Shown piece after piece: positions 20,188 through 29,812 of a stretch of DNA of 64,000 nucleotides. Below the pieces are notes generated by a model that saw nothing but the letters and a program-made list of their open reading frames with translations, was not told the origin of the DNA and did not search any database. Source of the stretch: an uncultured Nitrospiraceae bacterium (GTDB taxonomy: Bacteria > Nitrospirota > Thermodesulfovibrionia > Thermodesulfovibrionales > SM23-35); the NCBI GenBank assembly GCA_963727775.1, contig CAVSHB010000001.1, positions 320,001 to 384,000 on the forward strand, in the 5' to 3' direction. The stretch's first letter is position 1. Each line of letters opens with the position of its first letter. The position numbers and the translations under genes were made by a program.

Positions 20188-20436
20188 TCAGTATCGATCC
20201 GGAGGGCTATTGCACCTGGAAGGGAGCAAATACTCAATCGTGACCATTGTGCCCTTCTTGCAAACCGGGCAGGTATTGATATCGATACCGTAGATTCTGA
20301 GCAACTGATCCTGCCAGGTCTCTGATTTTTCTTCTTCTTCTTCTTTTGTTTCGGTTTTACAACTGCCGATGAGCTTACGGCATAGCGCGATGTTGTCTTT
20401 ACGCTTTCTGTTTGCGAGGAGTCCGAAGTGCCTGAT
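20188..20436 (-). pseudogene. IS91-type transposase C-terminal fragment
   Basis: IRHFGLLANRKR...CPVCKKG...PP; joins FVRIR of the 23864-24458 fragment in frame when the RIT is removed. Confidence 0.85.
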
Positions 20437-20535
20437 TTATGTTATATATTCACTTATGTTGCGTCGTTTGTGAAAGGCCTTGTTATTGCACAATGTCATC
20501 GTTAACGACACAACATAAGTAAATCCCTCTTCGGG

Positions 20536-21531
20536 TTAAAGTGCTTTTAAGAATGCCATCAACCCCGGCTGATCTTTCCACCGTCTTGATTGCTCTGAAG
20601 TAAATATCTCACAGTGGGCAAGTGCCTTTGCCTTCATTTCGAGATCGACCTCAGCATAGACATTTGTGGTATCTAGCGACACATGCCCCAGCCATGCACG
20701 GATTGTATTAATATCCACACCTGCGCGAAGAAGGTGAACTGCGCAGGAATGACGAATTATATGTGCACTGACTCTTTTCGTTCTCATTGAGGGGACTTTG
20801 TTGCTTGCTTTGATAACATAACGCCTAACGAGGGCATGAATGCCGAAGCGAGTGATTGTCTGCCCCCGACAGTTGAGGAAAACCTGTTCGCTATCCTGGC
20901 GATCGGCAATGAGAGTGCGTAAAGTATTGGCTGTTAAAGACCATAAAGGACAGATTCGTGTCTTGCCTCCCTTGCCTTTAATCTTGACTGAAAGCGAATA
21001 ATCCAGGTCGAGATCGTCTACAGTCATATTCGCAGCTTCATGGGCGCGGGCGCCAGTATTGTAAAGAAAAAGAAGTACGGCATAATCTCTAAAGCCTTGT
21101 TTGGTGGAAGTAACGGGAGCATTAAGCAGGGCATCCATTTCTTGTTTGTCGAGATAAGACATCGCAGCCTTTGCAGTTTTTTTGAAAGGGATAGCTCTGA
21201 TCTGTCCACACCAGATGATGTGTTCCGGACATCGTTCGCCGATAAAACCGGCGAGGGCGTGAATTGCGGCAAGGCGCTGGTTGCGAGTGGCTATAGAACA
21301 GGATCGATGCTCCTCTATATAAAGCAGAAAAAGACGAATTACCTCAGGGGATATATGCTCTACAAGCAGCTTGTCTATAGGTTTTCTGACCTTCTCAGCG
21401 ATGAAAGGGAGCATCAAGGCCAGAGCATCGCGATAACTGGATTGTGTATTTAGCGACAGATTACGCTCTTCCACCAAGTATTCCATAAGGAAGCGTCGCA
21501 CCCAATATCCGATAGAAGTTACGTTAGACAT
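20536..21531 (-). CDS. RIT tyrosine recombinase C
   Basis: TGAR, GKGGKTR, HIIRH, WLGH, NVY catalytic residues. Confidence 0.9.
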   Translation of the reverse strand: MSNVTSIGYWVRRFLMEYLVEERNLSLNTQSSYRDALALMLPFIAEKVRKPIDKLLVEHISPEVIRLFLLYIEEHRSCSIATRNQRLAAIHALAGFIGERCPEHIIWCGQIRAIPFKKTAKAAMSYLDKQEMDALLNAPVTSTKQGFRDYAVLLFLYNTGARAHEAANMTVDDLDLDYSLSVKIKGKGGKTRICPLWSLTANTLRTLIADRQDSEQVFLNCRGQTITRFGIHALVRRYVIKASNKVPSMRTKRVSAHIIRHSCAVHLLRAGVDINTIRAWLGHVSLDTTNVYAEVDLEMKAKALAHCEIFTSEQSRRWKDQPGLMAFLKAL

Positions 21532-22468
21532 GATTCACGTCCGATAGAACATAATGTTCAAAACGCAAATTTGCTTCCCGCAAAAGATCAGGAGTCATGC
21601 TCAAATAGCATTGGGTCTCCGCCACATCAGTATGGCCCAAATAGGTTGATAATTGAGGCAGCAAGCGCTGGACATCAGCGCCTTCCCGGTACCAGGCTTC
21701 AAGACGGTGAACTGAAAAAGTGTGACGAAGGTCGTGAATCCTGGGATAGTATCGAGTGCCGTCCCGGCGAGGCATCCCGGATAGGTTTCGCAAACGACTG
21801 AAAGTTTTTTGCATGCGGCCATAGGATAAAGCGTGGCCAGTGCGTGTGGCAAAAAAGGCGGAATCTTCCTTAAGTCGGCAGGGCAACAGTCGCCTTTTTC
21901 CCAGATAGGAGTCAAGGTGGTCAGTTAACCGAGGGCCGATGGGTACGAGACGTGTCTTATAGAATTTGGTATTGCGCACTGTGATAAGGCTATCCGAAAC
22001 GTTAACATCAGCAATCGTTAGAGAAAGCGCTTCGCTGATACGAAGGCCTGTTCCATAAAGGGTAAGCAAAATGGTTCGGAAGGTGGTTGCCTGAAGAGGA
22101 CTTATTGGGGATTTAAGCGAGTTGGTAGCGGAAAGGAGGCGGTGCAGTTCCTCGGTGGTGTAAATATATGGTTCCAGAGTCGCCGGACGTTTAGGTACCA
22201 TCTTTGGAAGCGGAGACTTGTCGATATGACCATGGGTCAGAGCAAAGCGATAGAAACCACAGAGGACTTCATACTTCCGGTGCCAGAAGGTAGTGATCGG
22301 ACCTTCACCTGCAAGGAATGCTGCTGCAGTATCGGGATTAACTTCTTCGATCTCTATATTGCCCATAGCTTTGCAAAAAGATCTGAGTACCACAGCATCA
22401 GACCGGTAACACATACCAATGGACTGTTTTAGCGACACATACTCGGTAACAAGTTCTGAGAGTTTCAT
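21524..22468 (-). CDS. RIT tyrosine recombinase B
   Basis: TGLRISEA, TKFYKTR, HDLRHTF, LSTYLGH. Confidence 0.9.
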   Translation of the reverse strand: MKLSELVTEYVSLKQSIGMCYRSDAVVLRSFCKAMGNIEIEEVNPDTAAAFLAGEGPITTFWHRKYEVLCGFYRFALTHGHIDKSPLPKMVPKRPATLEPYIYTTEELHRLLSATNSLKSPISPLQATTFRTILLTLYGTGLRISEALSLTIADVNVSDSLITVRNTKFYKTRLVPIGPRLTDHLDSYLGKRRLLPCRLKEDSAFFATRTGHALSYGRMQKTFSRLRNLSGMPRRDGTRYYPRIHDLRHTFSVHRLEAWYREGADVQRLLPQLSTYLGHTDVAETQCYLSMTPDLLREANLRFEHYVLSDVNHV

Positions 22469-23706
22469 TCCAGCCCTCCCATATCAAACTTAGCTACCTC
22501 GCGAAGACCTGACAGATTCACCTTGGCATAGATCCTCGTGGAGAGAGAACTTCGATGCCCTAGGTGATCGCCGACCTCCTTGAGGGAGAAGCCCTCGGCA
22601 ACCAGGTGGGCGGCGCACGCATGCCGCAATGAGTGGGGCCCATGATGGTGAGTGCGTATCCCGAGCTTCACCATTCTGTTACTGACCACAGGATAAAGTG
22701 CTCCTAATGAAAAAGGACGATATGGGGGCAAGAGAGTGAGAAATATCTCTCGATATGAAGAGTGGGGACGCACTTCCTGTAAATAGCGGATTATCGCGTT
22801 GCCTACTATTGGGATCAATGGGTATGTTTGTCTTCCTCTCAGCTTAACTCGGGGTACCGACATAAGTCTCTGTTCCCAGTCGATATCGTCAAGCCTGAGA
22901 GTTGCTACCTCAGTTGATCTCAACCCATAGATCGCAAAAAGCATCACGATGGGTTTGTCTCGTATGTCACTGGCTTGATCTGTCTCCATGCTCTCTATCA
23001 AGAGTCTCACGTTTCCCCAAGATGGTCCCGACGGCAATTGTTCTTGGGCAAAGATACGAGGGCCACGTATATCGGGGGCGATTGAAGACGAACACCACCC
23101 CCGTGAAGCCGCGTACTTGAAAAAGGCCTTCAGCGCGGTCGCCATGTGTTTAACCGATATGCGACAATTGCCCTTGTCACCGTAATGGGTAAGAAACGCG
23201 TCAATATCTTTGAGGCAAACGGCTGAGATATCACAACTCCGAGTGCCATACCAGCGTAGAAACCGTTCAACGTAAGAGCAGTTCCCTCGGATAGTCTGAG
23301 AAGTGAACCCTCGTTCGTTCTTCATCCATGTCCTGAAATCTTCAAGCAAATGACCAAACGGAATGGAAGTATCTTCTCTCCAACAGCCCAAAAAACGTAG
23401 CCACGATCTTGCTGCATTGACAAAGCGACTGCGAGTACAGTGCGGATTAAGCGCTTTTCCCCAATATCGTTCCCGTTCTGTCCATCCTCGGGCGACAGCT
23501 TCGACCTGATTCAGGGTTACTCCGTTTTCAAAAGAAATACGTAGCTTCTTTGCGACCCATAAAAGTTCTCGCGCAATGTTCTGTAAAGTCGAGAGAGAAT
23601 ATCCTTCTTGCTCGCAGTGCTTAAGATAACGCTCCCTCTCCTCTTTGTACGGGGCCTTCTTGTGACGGGATAGAATTGAGAGTTTTGTGTAAAGCTTTTC
23701 AAACAT
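22465..23706 (-). CDS. RIT tyrosine recombinase A
   Basis: YGLRSTEV, HSLRH, HLGHR, IYAKV; likely ATG at 23706 after AGAGGAGG. Confidence 0.9.
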   Translation of the reverse strand: MFEKLYTKLSILSRHKKAPYKEERERYLKHCEQEGYSLSTLQNIARELLWVAKKLRISFENGVTLNQVEAVARGWTERERYWGKALNPHCTRSRFVNAARSWLRFLGCWREDTSIPFGHLLEDFRTWMKNERGFTSQTIRGNCSYVERFLRWYGTRSCDISAVCLKDIDAFLTHYGDKGNCRISVKHMATALKAFFKYAASRGWCSSSIAPDIRGPRIFAQEQLPSGPSWGNVRLLIESMETDQASDIRDKPIVMLFAIYGLRSTEVATLRLDDIDWEQRLMSVPRVKLRGRQTYPLIPIVGNAIIRYLQEVRPHSSYREIFLTLLPPYRPFSLGALYPVVSNRMVKLGIRTHHHGPHSLRHACAAHLVAEGFSLKEVGDHLGHRSSLSTRIYAKVNLSGLREVAKFDMGGLE

Positions 23707-23863
23707 GACCGGACCTCCTCTAATAGAGACTTTCCAGCCATATAACGGCAATTACTTATGTGTTGTCAAATCAAAAATAATCATTGCAAATTAAGAAAAT
23801 TGACTGACTTCACAACATAAGTGAATACATAACATAAATCAGGTTATGTGTTTAAGCACATAA

Positions 23864-24458
23864 CCTGATGCGCACAAATCGATGCGGAAGCACATGAAGA
23901 AGGAACCTTCTTATGAACTCATCGGCCTTAAGAGTCATGATCTTTTGTTTATCACCATCGGCATAGTCCCGCCAGCGGAAGGAAACATTGCCGTCTTCAA
24001 CGTTTAGGACACGATTATTACTGATAGCAATCCTGTGGGTATATCTGCCCAGATACTTGAGGACACCCTCGGCGCCGTCAAAAGGCGGCTTGCAATATAC
24101 AACCCACTTCTTATGGTAGAACTGTCCTCTGAACACCTCAAAGGTTCCGGGGTCTTTAAGATGACGGATACCGCCAGGGAAGATAAGATCACCTGATTCA
24201 AACCTGTTTTTGAGATGGTCCAGGAACTTGCCCCTGAACAATGAGGACATAACCCTTACAGGCATGAAAAAACCTTTCCTGCACGATACCCAATGTTTTC
24301 CATCAGGTGACAATCCGCCGCCGGGTACGACACAGTGAATATGGGGATGATCCATAAGGTTTTGTCCCCAGGTGTGAAGGATGCCGATAAAGCCTGTATG
24401 TGCGCCGAGGTGTTTCGGATTATTGGAGAGCTCCATAAGTGTCTCGGAGACTGCCTGA
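23864..24458 (-). pseudogene. IS91-type (HUH) transposase central fragment, N-terminus deleted
   Basis: LHTWG, HPHIHC (HUH), YLGRYTHRIAISN, RRFLLHVLP. Confidence 0.9.
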
Positions 24459-25127
24459 GCGTATGTGGGCTTACTGGTTTTGTTATGCCGGCGCGCTCTT
24501 TGGCCTCAACGAATATCTGTCGTATTGTACTTAGACATACATGAGCTCCTTCCTTTTGTCAAACAACCAGTCTTTCGGACGATATTCTCTCCAGTATTGC
24601 CTCAGACACTCAAGAGCGGTCTGAGACAGGATGGTGTAACGGTCTTTGCCCCCCTTGCCTTGCTGAACTCTTACCATCATCCGCTTGCTGTCGATATCGC
24701 TTACCTTAAGGTGTGCTGTTTCGCTTATCCGGAGGCCTGCAGAATAGGTAATCGTCAGGATCGCCCGGTGCTTTAGATTCTCCATGACGGAAAGCAAAGT
24801 CTTGACTTCTGCCAAATCCAGAACCACAGGAAGTTTGTTTTTCCCTCTGGGACAATGAATCTTCTCCACGACCTCTTCCCGTTTTAACGTGTGCTTATAT
24901 AGAAACTTCAAACCCTGGTAATAAAACCGGTATGTCCCCTTGGCCAACTTCCGTTCGTTCAAAAGATACAGCAAATACTCTCTGAGTTCCTTCTCTCCAA
25001 GTTCCTCCGGCGACTTGCCGAAGTACTTTGCATAATTGCTTACTTCCCTCAGATAAACCTTTTGGGTCTTGGGGGTAAGTCCCTTCAACTGAAGCTCTGC
25101 CAACATCTGTTCTCTCAATGTGCTCAT
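24452..25127 (-). pseudogene. Tyrosine integrase, frameshifted and truncated
   Basis: YSAGLRISE, QGKGGKDR; frameshift near 24560, after which GQKEGAHVCLSTIRQIF...VSPHTLR follows, then fusion to the transposase. Confidence 0.85.
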
Positions 25128-25466
25128 ATCCAATCTCCTTTGAATCGATATGCGCCGACGAAGGCCGACGGGGAAACAAAGGAAATTGTAAAAAGACTTC
25201 GATTGTTCAACAAGGGGGGGAATAGCAGACTAACTTCTACAACTCAGAAAAAGGTCTATCTTATCCAGAAAAGGCTCACGCCTCGTTAACCACCGCGCAG
25301 CGGTTTAGTTCTTCGGTACAAACTCTTCATGAGTTGCCGCTTCGCATAAATGTGGAGCTTGCTATATTGTTGTAGAGTTAGGCCTTGTTAAAGAAGGCTA
25401 TACTCTTTCTTGATTCAGACCAATGTGCGAGTTGGTTAAATCCAAACCAAAGAAAGGAGTATAGCC

Positions 25467-26729
25467 ATGAAGAAGAGTAAAACAAAAAAGTTTAAAGTAG
25501 TCAATGGTAGAACGATGATTGTGACAGCTGATATGGGAAAGGATAGACATTTTGGATACTGGCGCTGTCCGGACGGAAGCGATGTGAAGCCCTTTGCCTT
25601 CTGGAACAACGGCAGGGGTTTCCAAGAGTTCTGGGATCGTGTATCTTATGCCAAAAAGCTCCATAACATCGAAGATATTGTTTTTGGATACGAGTCCACC
25701 GGGCCGTATGCCGAACCTCTTGTTCATTTCATGCGTGCGAGAGGCGTACACATGGTACAAGTAAGCCCTATGCACACTAAGAGGCTTAAGGAGCTTCAGG
25801 GTAATTCGCCGAACAAGACCGACCAGAAAGACCCAAAGGTTATCGCTGATATTATGGCACTTGGCCACGCCCTGACTGTAGTGATCCCGGAAGGTCCAGC
25901 GGCCGAACTCAGGAGGCTCACTCAGGCCAGGGAAAGGAGCAACGAGCGTTATGTATCCCTGGTGAACCAGCTCCAGAGCTTGCTTGCGATTATCTTTCCT
26001 GAGTTTTTGCAGGTAATGAAGGATGTAAAGACGTTGACTGCCCGATATCTCCTTGCGCAGTGCCCAGCACCCAAGGATATTGTCGCGTACAGTCTTGATA
26101 ATTTGAGTGCAACGATCAATAAGGTCAGCCGCGGAAAGCTGAAGGAAGATCGCGCCAAGGCCCTCTATGAGGCTGCAACAGCTTCTATAGGTGTAACCGA
26201 AGGCATGACGAGCATTATACGTGAGATAAGAGAACTTCTTATCGCCATGGACGCTGCTGAGTCCTTTACCGGGGATCTGGAAAAGGAAATGGGGTATTAT
26301 CTGAAGCAGATTCCCTACAGTGGCTCGATCCTCTCGATAAAGGGGATTAAAGAGGTTACCACTGCCGGTCTTATCGGTGAAGTGGGTGATTTTCGGAAGT
26401 TTCAAACCCTCTCCGAGATCCTAAAGCTCGCAGGGCTGGACCTTTATGAGATCAGTTCTGGCCAATACAAGGGGAAGCGACGCATATCTAAGCGAGGCCG
26501 TCACCTGCTGCGTAAACTTTTGTACTTTGCCTCGCTCAACACAGTCCGCAGAGGTGGAATAATGCACGATCAATATCAAAAGTACCTTGAGCGGGGCATG
26601 CCTAAGACCAAGGCGCTGATCGCCGTAGCAAGAAAACTTCTTGGAATCATATTTGCTGTTGTGCGTGACCAAAGTGTATACAAAAAAGATTTCTCTATAG
26701 TCTCACTTCAATACCAGGAGGCTGCATAA
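25467..26729 (+). CDS. IS110-family recombinase/transposase
   Basis: ADMGK, GYEST, KTDQKD (DEDD), SIKGI, SSGQ, ISKRG. Confidence 0.95.
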   Translation: MKKSKTKKFKVVNGRTMIVTADMGKDRHFGYWRCPDGSDVKPFAFWNNGRGFQEFWDRVSYAKKLHNIEDIVFGYESTGPYAEPLVHFMRARGVHMVQVSPMHTKRLKELQGNSPNKTDQKDPKVIADIMALGHALTVVIPEGPAAELRRLTQARERSNERYVSLVNQLQSLLAIIFPEFLQVMKDVKTLTARYLLAQCPAPKDIVAYSLDNLSATINKVSRGKLKEDRAKALYEAATASIGVTEGMTSIIREIRELLIAMDAAESFTGDLEKEMGYYLKQIPYSGSILSIKGIKEVTTAGLIGEVGDFRKFQTLSEILKLAGLDLYEISSGQYKGKRRISKRGRHLLRKLLYFASLNTVRRGGIMHDQYQKYLERGMPKTKALIAVARKLLGIIFAVVRDQSVYKKDFSIVSLQYQEAA

Positions 26730-26743
26730 CTTATAGTATTGGC

Positions 26744-26908
26744 GTGTAAGCGGGGAGATTACCGACCTGATACCTAAGGCGGCTGAGCCGACCTTCATGC
26801 GGAGCTTGTAACTCCCCGCTTGCACCTTAGTCTCGATTAAGCAAGGTCAGGGCTCTGTTGAGACCCTCGAATTACCAGTGTCAGGCAAGGTGCTACACCA
26901 AAGACTAA
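26744..26908 (+). ncRNA. Putative bridge RNA of IS110 element 2
   Basis: Hairpin 1 internal loop has ACCTGATAC and ATGCGGAG matching the target; hairpin 2 loop has AGCAAG and ACCAG matching the donor junction. Confidence 0.8.
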
Positions 26909-27329
26909 AGTGACTTCCTCCTAATGGAGATGGAAGTGAGAAGGTTGATATAAGGTTAAGTGAAAGGAGCCAAGAGGAGGCATAAAAAAGAGAAACGCCG
27001 AATCCAGGGGATACCGTAATATGGGTCATGCTGAGATAATCGATCCTATAGCTTTCTACGAAGCCGCTTTTTCAGAATTGGCTCTCAAACATGCAGAATG
27101 GATTACGTAATGAGACAAGGGATCTGGGGGCAAAGAACGAAGCAGAAACCATTGAAGCCAGGAAACCTTAGTAGTGGCTTGTCTCTATCAGAGGGGAGTT
27201 ACTCCGTAAAAAGTTCTTGACAATAATAAACCAGTATCAGGTGGACCTCGCGGTGGCCGGGTTCTTCAGAACGTATCGAGTGGGTCAGATAACCTTTTCA
27301 TAAGGTCTCCACTTTGGTAAAATAATGTC

Positions 27330-27515
27330 ATGGATTTATTTAAATCATTCACTTTTAAATGGTGGCAGGGAAGCTTTTTCAAATTATCCATGATTTCGCT
27401 TGGAATCATCTTGGGTGTCTACTTCCAAACATTCTTCCTCAAGTGGATCGTTATTGTGACAATTATTTTTATTGTGCCTGCAATCTATCTTTTCCGCGTA
27501 TGGTGGAGGCAATGA
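27330..27515 (+). CDS. Small two-TM hypothetical membrane protein
   Basis: 61-aa hydrophobic ORF; TAAAAT ends 6 nt before the ATG. Confidence 0.55.
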   Translation: MDLFKSFTFKWWQGSFFKLSMISLGIILGVYFQTFFLKWIVIVTIIFIVPAIYLFRVWWRQ

Positions 27516-27598
27516 CTTAGCTAGCTGCTTCACGCTGAAAGTGGATGTTGAATAATTGATTGTAATGCGTTAATGAACGCAATACTTAATATTTTGAT

Positions 27599-28192
27599 CT
27601 ACTTACTTCTGCGAGAGGCTTTCATCTTTTCACTGCCCTTATCCGCGTTCGCCTTCGCCTTAGAAGAGTATAGGAGGGTACGCATTAGTCCTGTTCTGTT
27701 ATCAACACCTGTTTTTATATAAATGTTGCTCAGATGGTCCTTTACGGTTTGCTCAGATATCTCAAGATCCTCAGCAATTTCAATTTTATTACGGCCGTCA
27801 AGAACTCTTCTAAGAATATCGTTTTCTCGCCTCGACAGCCTGAACTGTTGTCGGACTTCGTCCATGTTCAGCTTATTGGAAATGGTTTCTTCAATAATGA
27901 CAAGATAGATAATTGGATCCGGTTTATCGTAAGTATAGATCCTGAATATCCAATGGCTCGGGGAACCTCTGAATTTCTTTGTGAAACATATTTCTCCGGG
28001 GAATAGTTCGTTTAATCTCCCGCTGTCGATGGCATCGAATATCCTGTTTTTGATAATTGTTATTTCAGCGGGAAGATCGAACCGGCCAAGAAAGCTGGTT
28101 GCCTTTTTGTTCGTGTAAAAAATGCTCTTTCGATTGAAGATTATCAGACCTATGGGGAGTTTTTTCAGAATAAACTCTATCTCTTCGTTCAT
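27599..28192 (-). CDS. LuxR-type HTH transcriptional regulator
   Basis: LSRREND...IAEDLEISEQTVKDHLSNIYIK. Confidence 0.85.
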   Translation of the reverse strand: MNEEIEFILKKLPIGLIIFNRKSIFYTNKKATSFLGRFDLPAEITIIKNRIFDAIDSGRLNELFPGEICFTKKFRGSPSHWIFRIYTYDKPDPIIYLVIIEETISNKLNMDEVRQQFRLSRRENDILRRVLDGRNKIEIAEDLEISEQTVKDHLSNIYIKTGVDNRTGLMRTLLYSSKAKANADKGSEKMKASRRSK

Positions 28193-28340
28193 TCTCTTCC
28201 TCTCTTTTTTATGTTAACTATATCATTTTCAGGAATGAAAGAAAATGTCTTTTTACGTGAAACGACCCGACGGGAATAACCGGAATACGCAAGAGTGCCA
28301 AAAGATCACTGGCTATTCGGATCTAATGACCCGGAGAAAT

Positions 28341-28580
28341 TCAGTTCCTTGACCTCTTGAAATCCCTTAGATCGTCAGGATCAAGCACTATACTCCTGCC
28401 TATCCTCCGCGACTTAAGGGACCCTTTCTTTACCCATCGCCTGACTGTGATGTTCGCAACATCGAGATACTCAGCGGCCTCCTTTATCGTAAAGGGCTCA
28501 TTGAGGTCTTCAAACACTTCTGCGTGAGTGTAAGTATCCTTTTCAAAGCCCTGCCTTGCAATTACCGTAAAAAGCCTCTC
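28341..28580 (-). pseudogene. 5'-truncated excisionase-type HTH (HTH_17) protein, possible antitoxin remnant
   Basis: Manual translation ERLFTVIARQGFEKD...FTIKEAAEYLDVANITVRRWVKKGSL...; no plausible start seen for the N-terminal part. Confidence 0.65.
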
Positions 28581-28651
28581 CGATAAACCGAACCGATATA
28601 TGTAAAAAATGTATAATATATGAAGCAGTTAAAAAGGGGGTGAGCTATAAA

Positions 28652-28852
28652 ATGTTCGGTACTCAGGATATAGTCCTTATCGGGATAATAGTTGTTGTGC
28701 TGTTTGGCGCAACCAAATTGCCCCAGTTGGGGAAGGGGTTAGGCCAGGCAATAGGAAATTTCAAAAAATCCATGAATGAACCTGAAAAGTTGGAAGAAAC
28801 AACAAAAGACAGCTCGGAAAATGAAGAGACACAGAAAAAGGAAAGTGAATAG
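28652..28852 (+). CDS. tatA: Twin-arginine translocase TatA/TatE subunit
   Basis: VVLFGATKLPQLGKGLGQAIGNFK. Confidence 0.9.
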   Translation: MFGTQDIVLIGIIVVVLFGATKLPQLGKGLGQAIGNFKKSMNEPEKLEETTKDSSENEETQKKESE

Positions 28853-29812
28853 ATGAACAAGAAATTCCTTAAATCAGTATCGCTCATAACAGCCCTGCTG
28901 TTTATAAGCATTGCCGTCTTTGAACTTGACGCTTTTGCGAGGGCAGGCGGCGGTAGGTCTTTCGGCAGCAGGGGCTCGATGAGTTATTCCTCTCCGAGCC
29001 GATCGTATTCCGGTCCTTCAAGACAACAGGCTGCACCATCTCCTGCGCAGCCTTCATCGCCTCAGTCGCCGGGCGGCGGTTTTATGAGGAGTTTCGGTGG
29101 AGGGTTGCTCGGCGGGATGGTAGGCGGGATGCTCTTCAGGAGTCTCGGTTTCGGTGGATATGGAGGCGGGTTCGGCGGCAGCGGCATAGGCATCTTTGAA
29201 ATCCTGCTGATTTTTGCAATCGGGTATTTCATAATCAGAACAATCAAAAGAAACAGAAGGGAAGCGAATCTTTCCTACCAGACTTCGTCTCAACAGGGAG
29301 GTTACCGGACGGAAGGCTTCCCCGTAAATGAGAACAGCGGACAAGCATATAAAGAAGATATTTCCGTCGGGATATCGCATGTCCGGCAGTTTGATCCATC
29401 TTTTGACGAAGACCGCTTTAAAGACACTGCAATGGATATTTTCTTCAAAATCCAGGGGGCCTGGATGAACAGGAATTTGTCCCCGGTAAACGGCTTATTG
29501 ACAGCTGATATGAGGTCTATTTTCCAGGAGGATATCAACTCTCTGTTAAGAGAAAAAAGGGTGAACAGACTCGAAAACATCGCGGTAAGGAGCGTTGAAA
29601 TTGCCGAGGCCTGGCAGGAAGCAGGACAGGATTTTATTACGGTCCTTTTTCGGGCAAACCTCCTGGATTATACTACGGATGATATAACGGGAGAAGTTGT
29701 CGCAGGGAGCAAAACAGACCCTGTAAAATTTGAGGAATACTGGACTTTGACGAGGACGGTAGGAAATAACCCCTGGAGGCTTTCAGCGATTCAGCAGACA
29801 CAAAATAGTTAA
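28853..29812 (+). CDS. Tim44-like domain protein
   Basis: ARAGGGRSFGSRG, Gly-rich TM region, FEEYWTLTR..WRLSAIQQ. Confidence 0.85.
   Translation: MNKKFLKSVSLITALLFISIAVFELDAFARAGGGRSFGSRGSMSYSSPSRSYSGPSRQQAAPSPAQPSSPQSPGGGFMRSFGGGLLGGMVGGMLFRSLGFGGYGGGFGGSGIGIFEILLIFAIGYFIIRTIKRNRREANLSYQTSSQQGGYRTEGFPVNENSGQAYKEDISVGISHVRQFDPSFDEDRFKDTAMDIFFKIQGAWMNRNLSPVNGLLTADMRSIFQEDINSLLREKRVNRLENIAVRSVEIAEAWQEAGQDFITVLFRANLLDYTTDDITGEVVAGSKTDPVKFEEYWTLTRTVGNNPWRLSAIQQTQNS

Follow-up and report, generated by a model that had tools for sequence, protein, structure and literature searches.

Does the IS110-family element in this stretch of DNA (the window, 64,000 nucleotides from an uncultured Nitrospiraceae bacterium) carry an RNA that guides its recombinase, and what kind of site would that RNA address? 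The first-pass annotation, made from the letters of the window, had proposed an intact and naturally programmed RNA-guided recombinase, and guide, handshake and fold covariation now speak in favour of that proposal. Our reading, to which we give a probability of roughly nine in ten, is that the element is an intact, multi-copy member of IS110 whose guides covary with insertion sites across relatives, and that a bridge RNA likely guides its recombinase into a 16-nt intergenic repeat that was there beforehand. The mechanism is already known from bridge RNAs and seekRNAs, and the element is a further RNA-guided IS110 system.

Results

Element, recombinase and relatives

Four copies of the element are present in the genome, differing by one or two bases over 1875 bp and identical in their RNA regions, which suggests recent movement; the ends, whose divergence between copies would have counted against the proposal, are identical in all four. 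An AG core stands at both ends in the four copies and in homologs while the empty motif sites hold one AG, as scarless insertion implies. The recombinase is of the DEDD/Ser type, combines PF01548 with PF02371 and scores above the NF033542 cutoff. Alignment to IS621 (8WT6) places its catalytic set at D22, E76, D119, D122 and S331-G332, and D22, E76, D119, D122 and S331 align with residues called catalytic in the accessible text on IS621 (PMC11208158). The element is intact, as annotated: its reading frame is open and none of the five catalytic residues is missing. One substitution, G209S, is private to the window copy; position 26091 is G in the remaining three copies as well as in contigs of three sequencing runs. 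Among assembled contigs from seven runs no end-to-end junction of the termini appeared, a result that says nothing either way on circles or expression.

A genome scan identified 75 homologous loci with 32–73% identity, mostly in Nitrospirota and Deltaproteobacteria as judged by record titles, and a protein search returned 3,886 matches, the best named one from Dissulfurispiraceae (78%). Among homologs the element ends are almost invariant, the same end motifs recurring as in the window. The right-end pattern gave six non-self genome matches, one of them a true relative, a pattern scan of metagenomes found one locus whose flank stops after two bases, and the element was absent from all 32 viral matches checked. 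A gene-less remnant of a close relative (L161, G357:C116:3367-3804) retains only the donor loop and right end, the latter at the guide-perfect flank TATCAGGTG. The genome of the window also holds an interrupted paralog (L091, C2:272832-276067) with 46–48% identity, built on the same RNA scaffold. Short repeats are likewise the insertion sites of other lineage members (L021-L028, L046, L069; L030-L036; L047, L048, L052), and in one genome all ten lineage copies carry the same G-A mismatch beside the core.

The right end measures about 503 nt here, against about 190–395 nt in homologs. Its segment 26917-27047 is 69% similar to sequence ahead of an IS3-like frame, so labelled by eye, in G031 (L081; E 2.5e-4), and may possibly be a captured fragment. 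The leader hairpin is conserved, and its predicted masking of the ribosome-binding site would extend to transcripts from the junction promoter. Upstream (window 20431-25310) lies an IS91-like unit of integrase and Y2 transposase that is interrupted by a RIT-type element with three recombinases and inverted repeats of 44 nt (20431-23843). The IS91-like unit ends 45 bases short of the IS110 element, on its left, and there abuts the truncated target unit.

Table 1. Features of the element, its predicted RNA and its target repeat (window positions unless a contig or locus is named).
Feature	Position	Strand	Basis or remark
Whole IS110-family element including both AG cores	25356..27234	+	1875 bp between cores; ends common to four genome copies
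Truncated end of about 256-nt unit, ending in target motif	25311..25349	+	cut off by end of IS91-like element
Left target half and core, ATGTGG-AG (other copies ATGCGG/CTGCGG-AG)	25349..25357	+	copy comparison
Left donor half CTTGCT and predicted −10 box TATATT (25363-68)	25358..25368	+	predicted circle-junction promoter
Left arm of short, imperfect sub-terminal inverted repeat	25365..25373	+	8/9 with 27220-28
Leader hairpin, predicted to hide recombinase ribosome-binding site	25396..25466; arms 25396-405/25456-66	+	fold; arms visible in homologs
IS110 recombinase, 420 aa	25467..26729	+	PF01548 and PF02371; NF033542; IS621 8WT6 alignment
Predicted bridge RNA, ends approximate (about 160 nt, two loops, 3′ of gene)	26739..26901	+	fold, alignment, shuffles
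Target-binding module	26748..26821; outer stem 26748-62/26808-21, inner 26776-83/26787-95	+	97–100% of cells paired
5′ target guide ACCTGATAC	26765..26773	+	covaries with right flank; predicted pairing to + strand right of core
3′ target guide ATGCGGAG	26797..26804	+	matches left flank and core; covaries with left flank
Predicted target-loop handshake CT	26805..26806	+	complementary to two donor bases beside core
Donor-binding module	26822..26893; outer stem 26822-37/26880-93, inner 26849-55/26860-67	+	alignment, fold
Donor guides AGCAAG and ACCAG	26840-45 and 26874-78, within donor-binding module	+	
Predicted donor-loop handshake TG	26879..26880	+	first base covaries with first right-flank base
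Extra non-coding right-end sequence	26902..27216	+	present in close relatives L092 and L157; without second bridge RNA
−35 box TTGACA (27217-22), right repeat arm (27220-28), right donor half AAACC, AG core	27217..27234	+	sequence
Right target half TATCAGGTG (TAGAAGGTG in other three copies)	27235..27243	+	copy comparison
About 256-nt units, genome G000	C1:785952-785697, C1:489734-489986, C1:1358580-1358319, C3:264074-263885		
Further about 256-nt unit/motif loci	L106, L116, L167, L169-L171, L173		

A predicted two-module RNA in the right end

Every loop motif that had been read from the sequence lies where it was placed, and the region 26744-26908 folds at z = −4.1. In 20,000 dinucleotide shuffles of this region the 9-nt match to the right flank arose nine times and all four matches together never; taken singly the remaining matches are weak, the 7/8 left-flank match arising 1,043 times, the donor 6-mer 1,201 times and the donor 5-mer 4,360 times. 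Across 35 distinct homologous RNAs, from which the two-module structure was itself drawn and which therefore somewhat favour it (one further locus, missed by the pattern, was dropped), 97.1% of cells are paired and 30 of 43 pairs show compensatory changes, against 34–49% pairing in slid controls. Compensatory changes are seen in all three helices of the target-binding module.

The second hairpin of the first-pass annotation, TTAGTCT/AGACTAA, did not survive this comparison: its helices are paired in only 61% and 41% of cells, and the pairs specific to it do no better as a set than shuffles (102/500). The donor loop is closed instead by 26822-37/26880-93 (95.5% paired, 10 of 14 pairs compensatory), a stem that begins with bases also claimed by the four outermost pairs of the first hairpin as originally drawn. 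Rfam gave no match within 24000-29000, and a search for an internal promoter for the RNA found none, with four predicted sites against 2.6 expected. Further guide candidates were discarded: a second guide for TAGAAGGTG, as the RNA profile matches once per copy and in the C2 paralog, which has other guides; a guide look-alike at about 27052-60, which is shared with the differently guided L092 and is thus not a guide; and the invariant ACCTTC, which is an arm of the inner stem.

In the IS621 CT-strand convention the 5′ target guide corresponds to the LTG and the 3′ target guide to the RTG. The target-loop handshake, to which we assign its role by analogy with the accessible account of IS621 (PMC11208158), is CT in 27 and begins with C in 41 of 48 distinct RNAs.

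Guides and handshake bases covary with the flanks

Target loops could be extracted from 78 loci, and the covariation of loops with insertion sites was assessed with relatedness ignored throughout. On the left, agreement of the 3′ guide with the six bases adjoining the core scores 4.26/6, permuted data giving 1.94 ± 0.20 (31 guides, 66 flanks); on the right, complementarity of the 5′ guide to the seven adjoining bases scores 5.44/7, permuted data giving 3.24 ± 0.21 (32 guides, 55 flanks), a one-base shift of register being allowed in real and permuted data alike. Neither score was reached in 20,000 permutations, relatedness again being ignored, and the crossed control was not significant (4,431/20,000). 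Left position 6 is hardly read (13/66 flanks), and pairing of the 5′ guides to the core is incomplete. The base past the right match is G in 46/55 flanks, opposite an invariant C that lies past a purine which is probably bulged.

The base after the ACCAG donor guide equals the first right-flank base in 33/37 elements (against a permuted proportion of 0.547 ± 0.061, with 0/20,000 permutations reaching it, relatedness ignored), and this covarying pair of positions is the relation reported for IS621 in the text available to us (PMC11208158). The donor guide matches are conserved, but the donor itself is almost invariant, so that donor-guide covariation rests on one compensatory paralog (C2:272832), set against two breaks (L013, L016); in that broken paralog the donor change is mirrored in the donor guide, and the target guides, which differ from those of the window copy, fit its own flanks (left 8/8).

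Joined end to end, the termini would form a predicted sigma-70 promoter. The annotated TTGACA-N17-TATATT junction proved general, its 17-nt spacing being kept in 62/62 loci with both ends found (out of 79 examined, repeated copies included), and all 62 conform to the consensus TTGAC(A/T)-17-TAT(A/G)(T/A)T.

The target and its occupancy

The target had been given as ATGTGG-AG-TATCAGGT. This holds at the window copy and fails as a description of the other three, which all read TAGAAGGTG and carry two guide mismatches. The left flanks of the four copies are ATGTGG (window), ATGCGG, CTGCGG and ATGCGG; the left guide matches 8/8 at two of the other copies and 7/8 at the third and at the window copy, while the right guide matches 8/8 at the window copy only. 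A given 16-mer is expected 0.001 times in the genome, so three such sites are not random.

A search for empty sites found the empty target motif in 8/56 genomes of the family against one control match. Ten motif matches against two control matches were counted in 200 genomes of the order, four of which were shared with the 56-genome family search. Five genomes chosen for a match yielded 22 motif and 4 control matches with two mismatches allowed; a further count over five chosen genomes gave 9 against 0, two of these genomes having none. In the phylum at large the motif is not enriched, 300 genomes yielding 1 match to it and 6 to the control. The 16-nt target repeat is thus enriched in the host's family and order, not in the wider phylum. 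The motif occurs in G023, a single-contig genome in which nothing matches the element. At 31 empty sites, a sample biased by the searches toward some variants and including a few chance matches in genes, right-flank positions 3–4 read TC 14 times, GC 9, GT 4, GA once and otherwise 3 times. The empty sites and their TC majority indicate that the guide fits the commonest variant and that the repeat pre-exists insertion, and a pre-existing 16-nt intergenic repeat is the likely target. The GA variant is missing from the closest empty sites in this genome. One site, C3:558807, is empty although it has one effective mismatch; it differs at position 2, a predicted handshake base. In related elements, contigs end (runs X6, X7) or diverge (X3) exactly nine bases past the core, as expected if several copies share that half-site.

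Discussion

How the element would move

By inference from IS621, ISEc11 and CazIS110-1, the joined ends would yield a circle with a sigma-70 promoter, from which a transcript crossing the gene into the right end would give the RNA of about 160 nt. By analogy, two recombinase dimers would take part, one keeping the target paired to the target loop and the other keeping the circle junction paired to the donor loop. Strands would be exchanged next to the AG core, which reads CT on the opposite strand, and the handshake bases would favour insertion. The target loop would read about 5–6 bases left of the core and eight to its right, plus the conserved G.

Three copies occupying the TAGA variant are most readily explained by mismatches at right-flank positions 3–4 being tolerated, as apparently they are, and this tolerance is our main reading of that occupancy. 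It seems somewhat unlikely that an equally RNA-guided element had the shared TAGAAGGTG carried along or homogenised, by half-match or direct strand transfer or by gene conversion into the nine flanking bases, so that the sequence was not chosen three times. Three unrelated right flanks do share the rare GA variant, sites elsewhere with the downstream sequence of copy W2 read TATC (L106) or TAGC (L167), and half-match and direct-transfer routes, beside copy-out, are described for the family in the accessible parts of recent preprints (10.1101/2025.10.25.684509; 10.64898/2026.08.31.748434; 10.64898/2026.08.14.744561); yet TAGA is one change from the common TAGC, and G442 offers an empty site that reads TAGA. 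Moreover, a guide-perfect flank with the same ends is seen both at the window copy and at the relative in G357, and the assembly contains no tandem or extended junction.

A true preference for TAGA, exerted through a tandem G-A/A-G mismatch pair or by a protein reading features of the repeat beyond pairing, is distinctly unlikely, being drawn from only three events in one genome. Such a tandem pair is a stable RNA motif, the geometry would set RNA 5′-GA-3′ opposite DNA 5′-GA-3′, and mismatches of the G-A type make up 15 of the 71 right-guide mismatches in homologs. For ISPpu10 a target stem-loop adds specificity, according to the available text (10.64898/2026.03.19.712850), but here a left half-site hairpin is visible at W1 and W2 and not at W3 and W4. 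A reading in which the loop matches arose by coincidence or survive as relics, with protein–DNA contacts alone selecting the site, is very improbable, since single short matches are indeed common by chance but guide–flank, handshake and structural covariation is not accounted for in that way.

The repeat that is targeted

The identity of the 16-nt repeat that tolerant guide pairing would address is the most novel lead. It is mostly intergenic, and its left and right flank families occur in several combinations. A non-coding unit of about 256 nt with two TTCGGGAC(A/G)AA boxes sits between motif-like copies, and in G357 and G077 motifs in the same direction bracket gene blocks (L176 1904/3607; L164 843/4507). 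This arrangement resembles the core of a site-specific recombination site, and the repeat may be such a site. A more ambitious version, which we regard as doubtful, would cast it as the crossover core at which an undescribed site-specific system of this bacterial order rearranges blocks of genes together with the roughly 256-nt non-coding cassette, with the IS110 RNA programmed to ride those sites and possibly carrying flank bases; IS1111-attC elements on integrons offer a parallel for an IS110 lineage riding on repeat sites.

Searches for a known counterpart returned little. Rfam on six target-motif loci gave a tRNA and a sub-threshold group II intron match, both away from the motif; the repeat had no plasmid and no viral-contig match, a literature search on it found nothing related, and no tyrosine-recombinase match was obtained in eight motif regions with four window proteins as queries, a search confined to tyrosine recombinases. 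An attC site is disfavoured because most sites lack GTT after the motif. Poor conservation of the right sides tells against a group II intron end, and stops and shifts seen by eye among copies tell against a coding remnant. Two further multi-copy intergenic repeat families of about 150 bp occur in the genome (for example C1:490453-490600 and C1:782370-782520).

Relation to known RNA-guided elements

Bridge RNAs have been predicted in 85.7% of IS110 and 93.0% of IS1111 elements in ISfinder, with a right-end location in the IS1111 group (accessible parts of PMC11208160), and reversed guide order, natural reprogramming and targeting of attC and REP sites are described for IS1111, together with IS110-group exceptions that have a downstream non-coding region (accessible parts of PMC11187229). 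To these the present element adds a lineage for which no test was found, with 420-aa recombinases, a right-end RNA, a near-fixed donor and about 30 natural guides; its target loop appears to read some 16–17 bp, the guides being long to either side of the core, and the reversed layout retains handshake pairing. A literature search combining IS110, bridge RNA and Nitrospirota found no paper, the donor motif AGCTTGCTATA is absent from the searchable parts of the supplement to PMC11208160, and a screen of 72 IS110 orthologs, of which part of the report was available (10.1101/2025.05.14.653916), may include a relative. The lineage could reasonably be entered in ortholog screens, and its natural variation lends itself to working out rules for mismatches.

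As far as the available texts describe them (PMC11208160; PMC11208158; 10.1101/2025.05.14.653916), IS621 and IS622 (ISCro4) share with this element the DEDD RuvC and Ser domains, a two-loop RNA with four guides, a CT core (read from the minus strand in the present case), handshake bases placed behind the 3′ guides (predicted here), a junction sigma-70 promoter (predicted here) and insertion into a repeat. The element differs from them in its weak sequence similarity (E 1e-7), in a recombinase of 420 aa against about 326, in the right-end location of its RNA, which is oriented opposite to the CT strand, and in longer guides on both sides with a conserved G beyond the 5′ guide (46/55 flanks).

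With the IS1111-type seekRNA elements ISEc11, ISKpn4, ISPst6 and ISPa11, in the accessible account of them (PMC11187229), it has in common a non-coding region 3′ of the gene, a top-strand complement that precedes the bottom-strand match, natural reprogramming and the targeting of repeats (attC, REP). In contrast to IS1111 as described there, the recombinase has 420 rather than 330–350 aa and a GL-P----S(t)G motif without the proline, the inverted repeat is imperfect (8/9 or 9/11) rather than near-perfect over 11–13 bp and is shorter in homologs, the repeat offsets do not give 7 and 3 bp, and the RNA is a simple two-loop molecule with a clear donor loop. As the layout is IS1111-like but the repeat length and protein size are not, the element is best filed, on length and motif resemblance rather than a tree, as an IS110-family member with a 3′ RNA.

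Within the IS110 group, the C-terminal domain and the motifs round the last two catalytic aspartates look like those of the ISChy2/ISCsa4/IS650/IS653 cluster in such sequences as are printed, a placement that, from comparison by eye, is a lead only; the nearest plasmid matches are Firmicutes IS110 proteins with 31–34% identity. Two multi-copy elements, in what is available of the reports on them, come close to the present one: CazIS110-1 has a two-loop RNA of about 170 nt (10.1101/2025.10.25.684509), and ISPpu10, like the element described here, inserts into a conserved intergenic repeat (10.64898/2026.03.19.712850).
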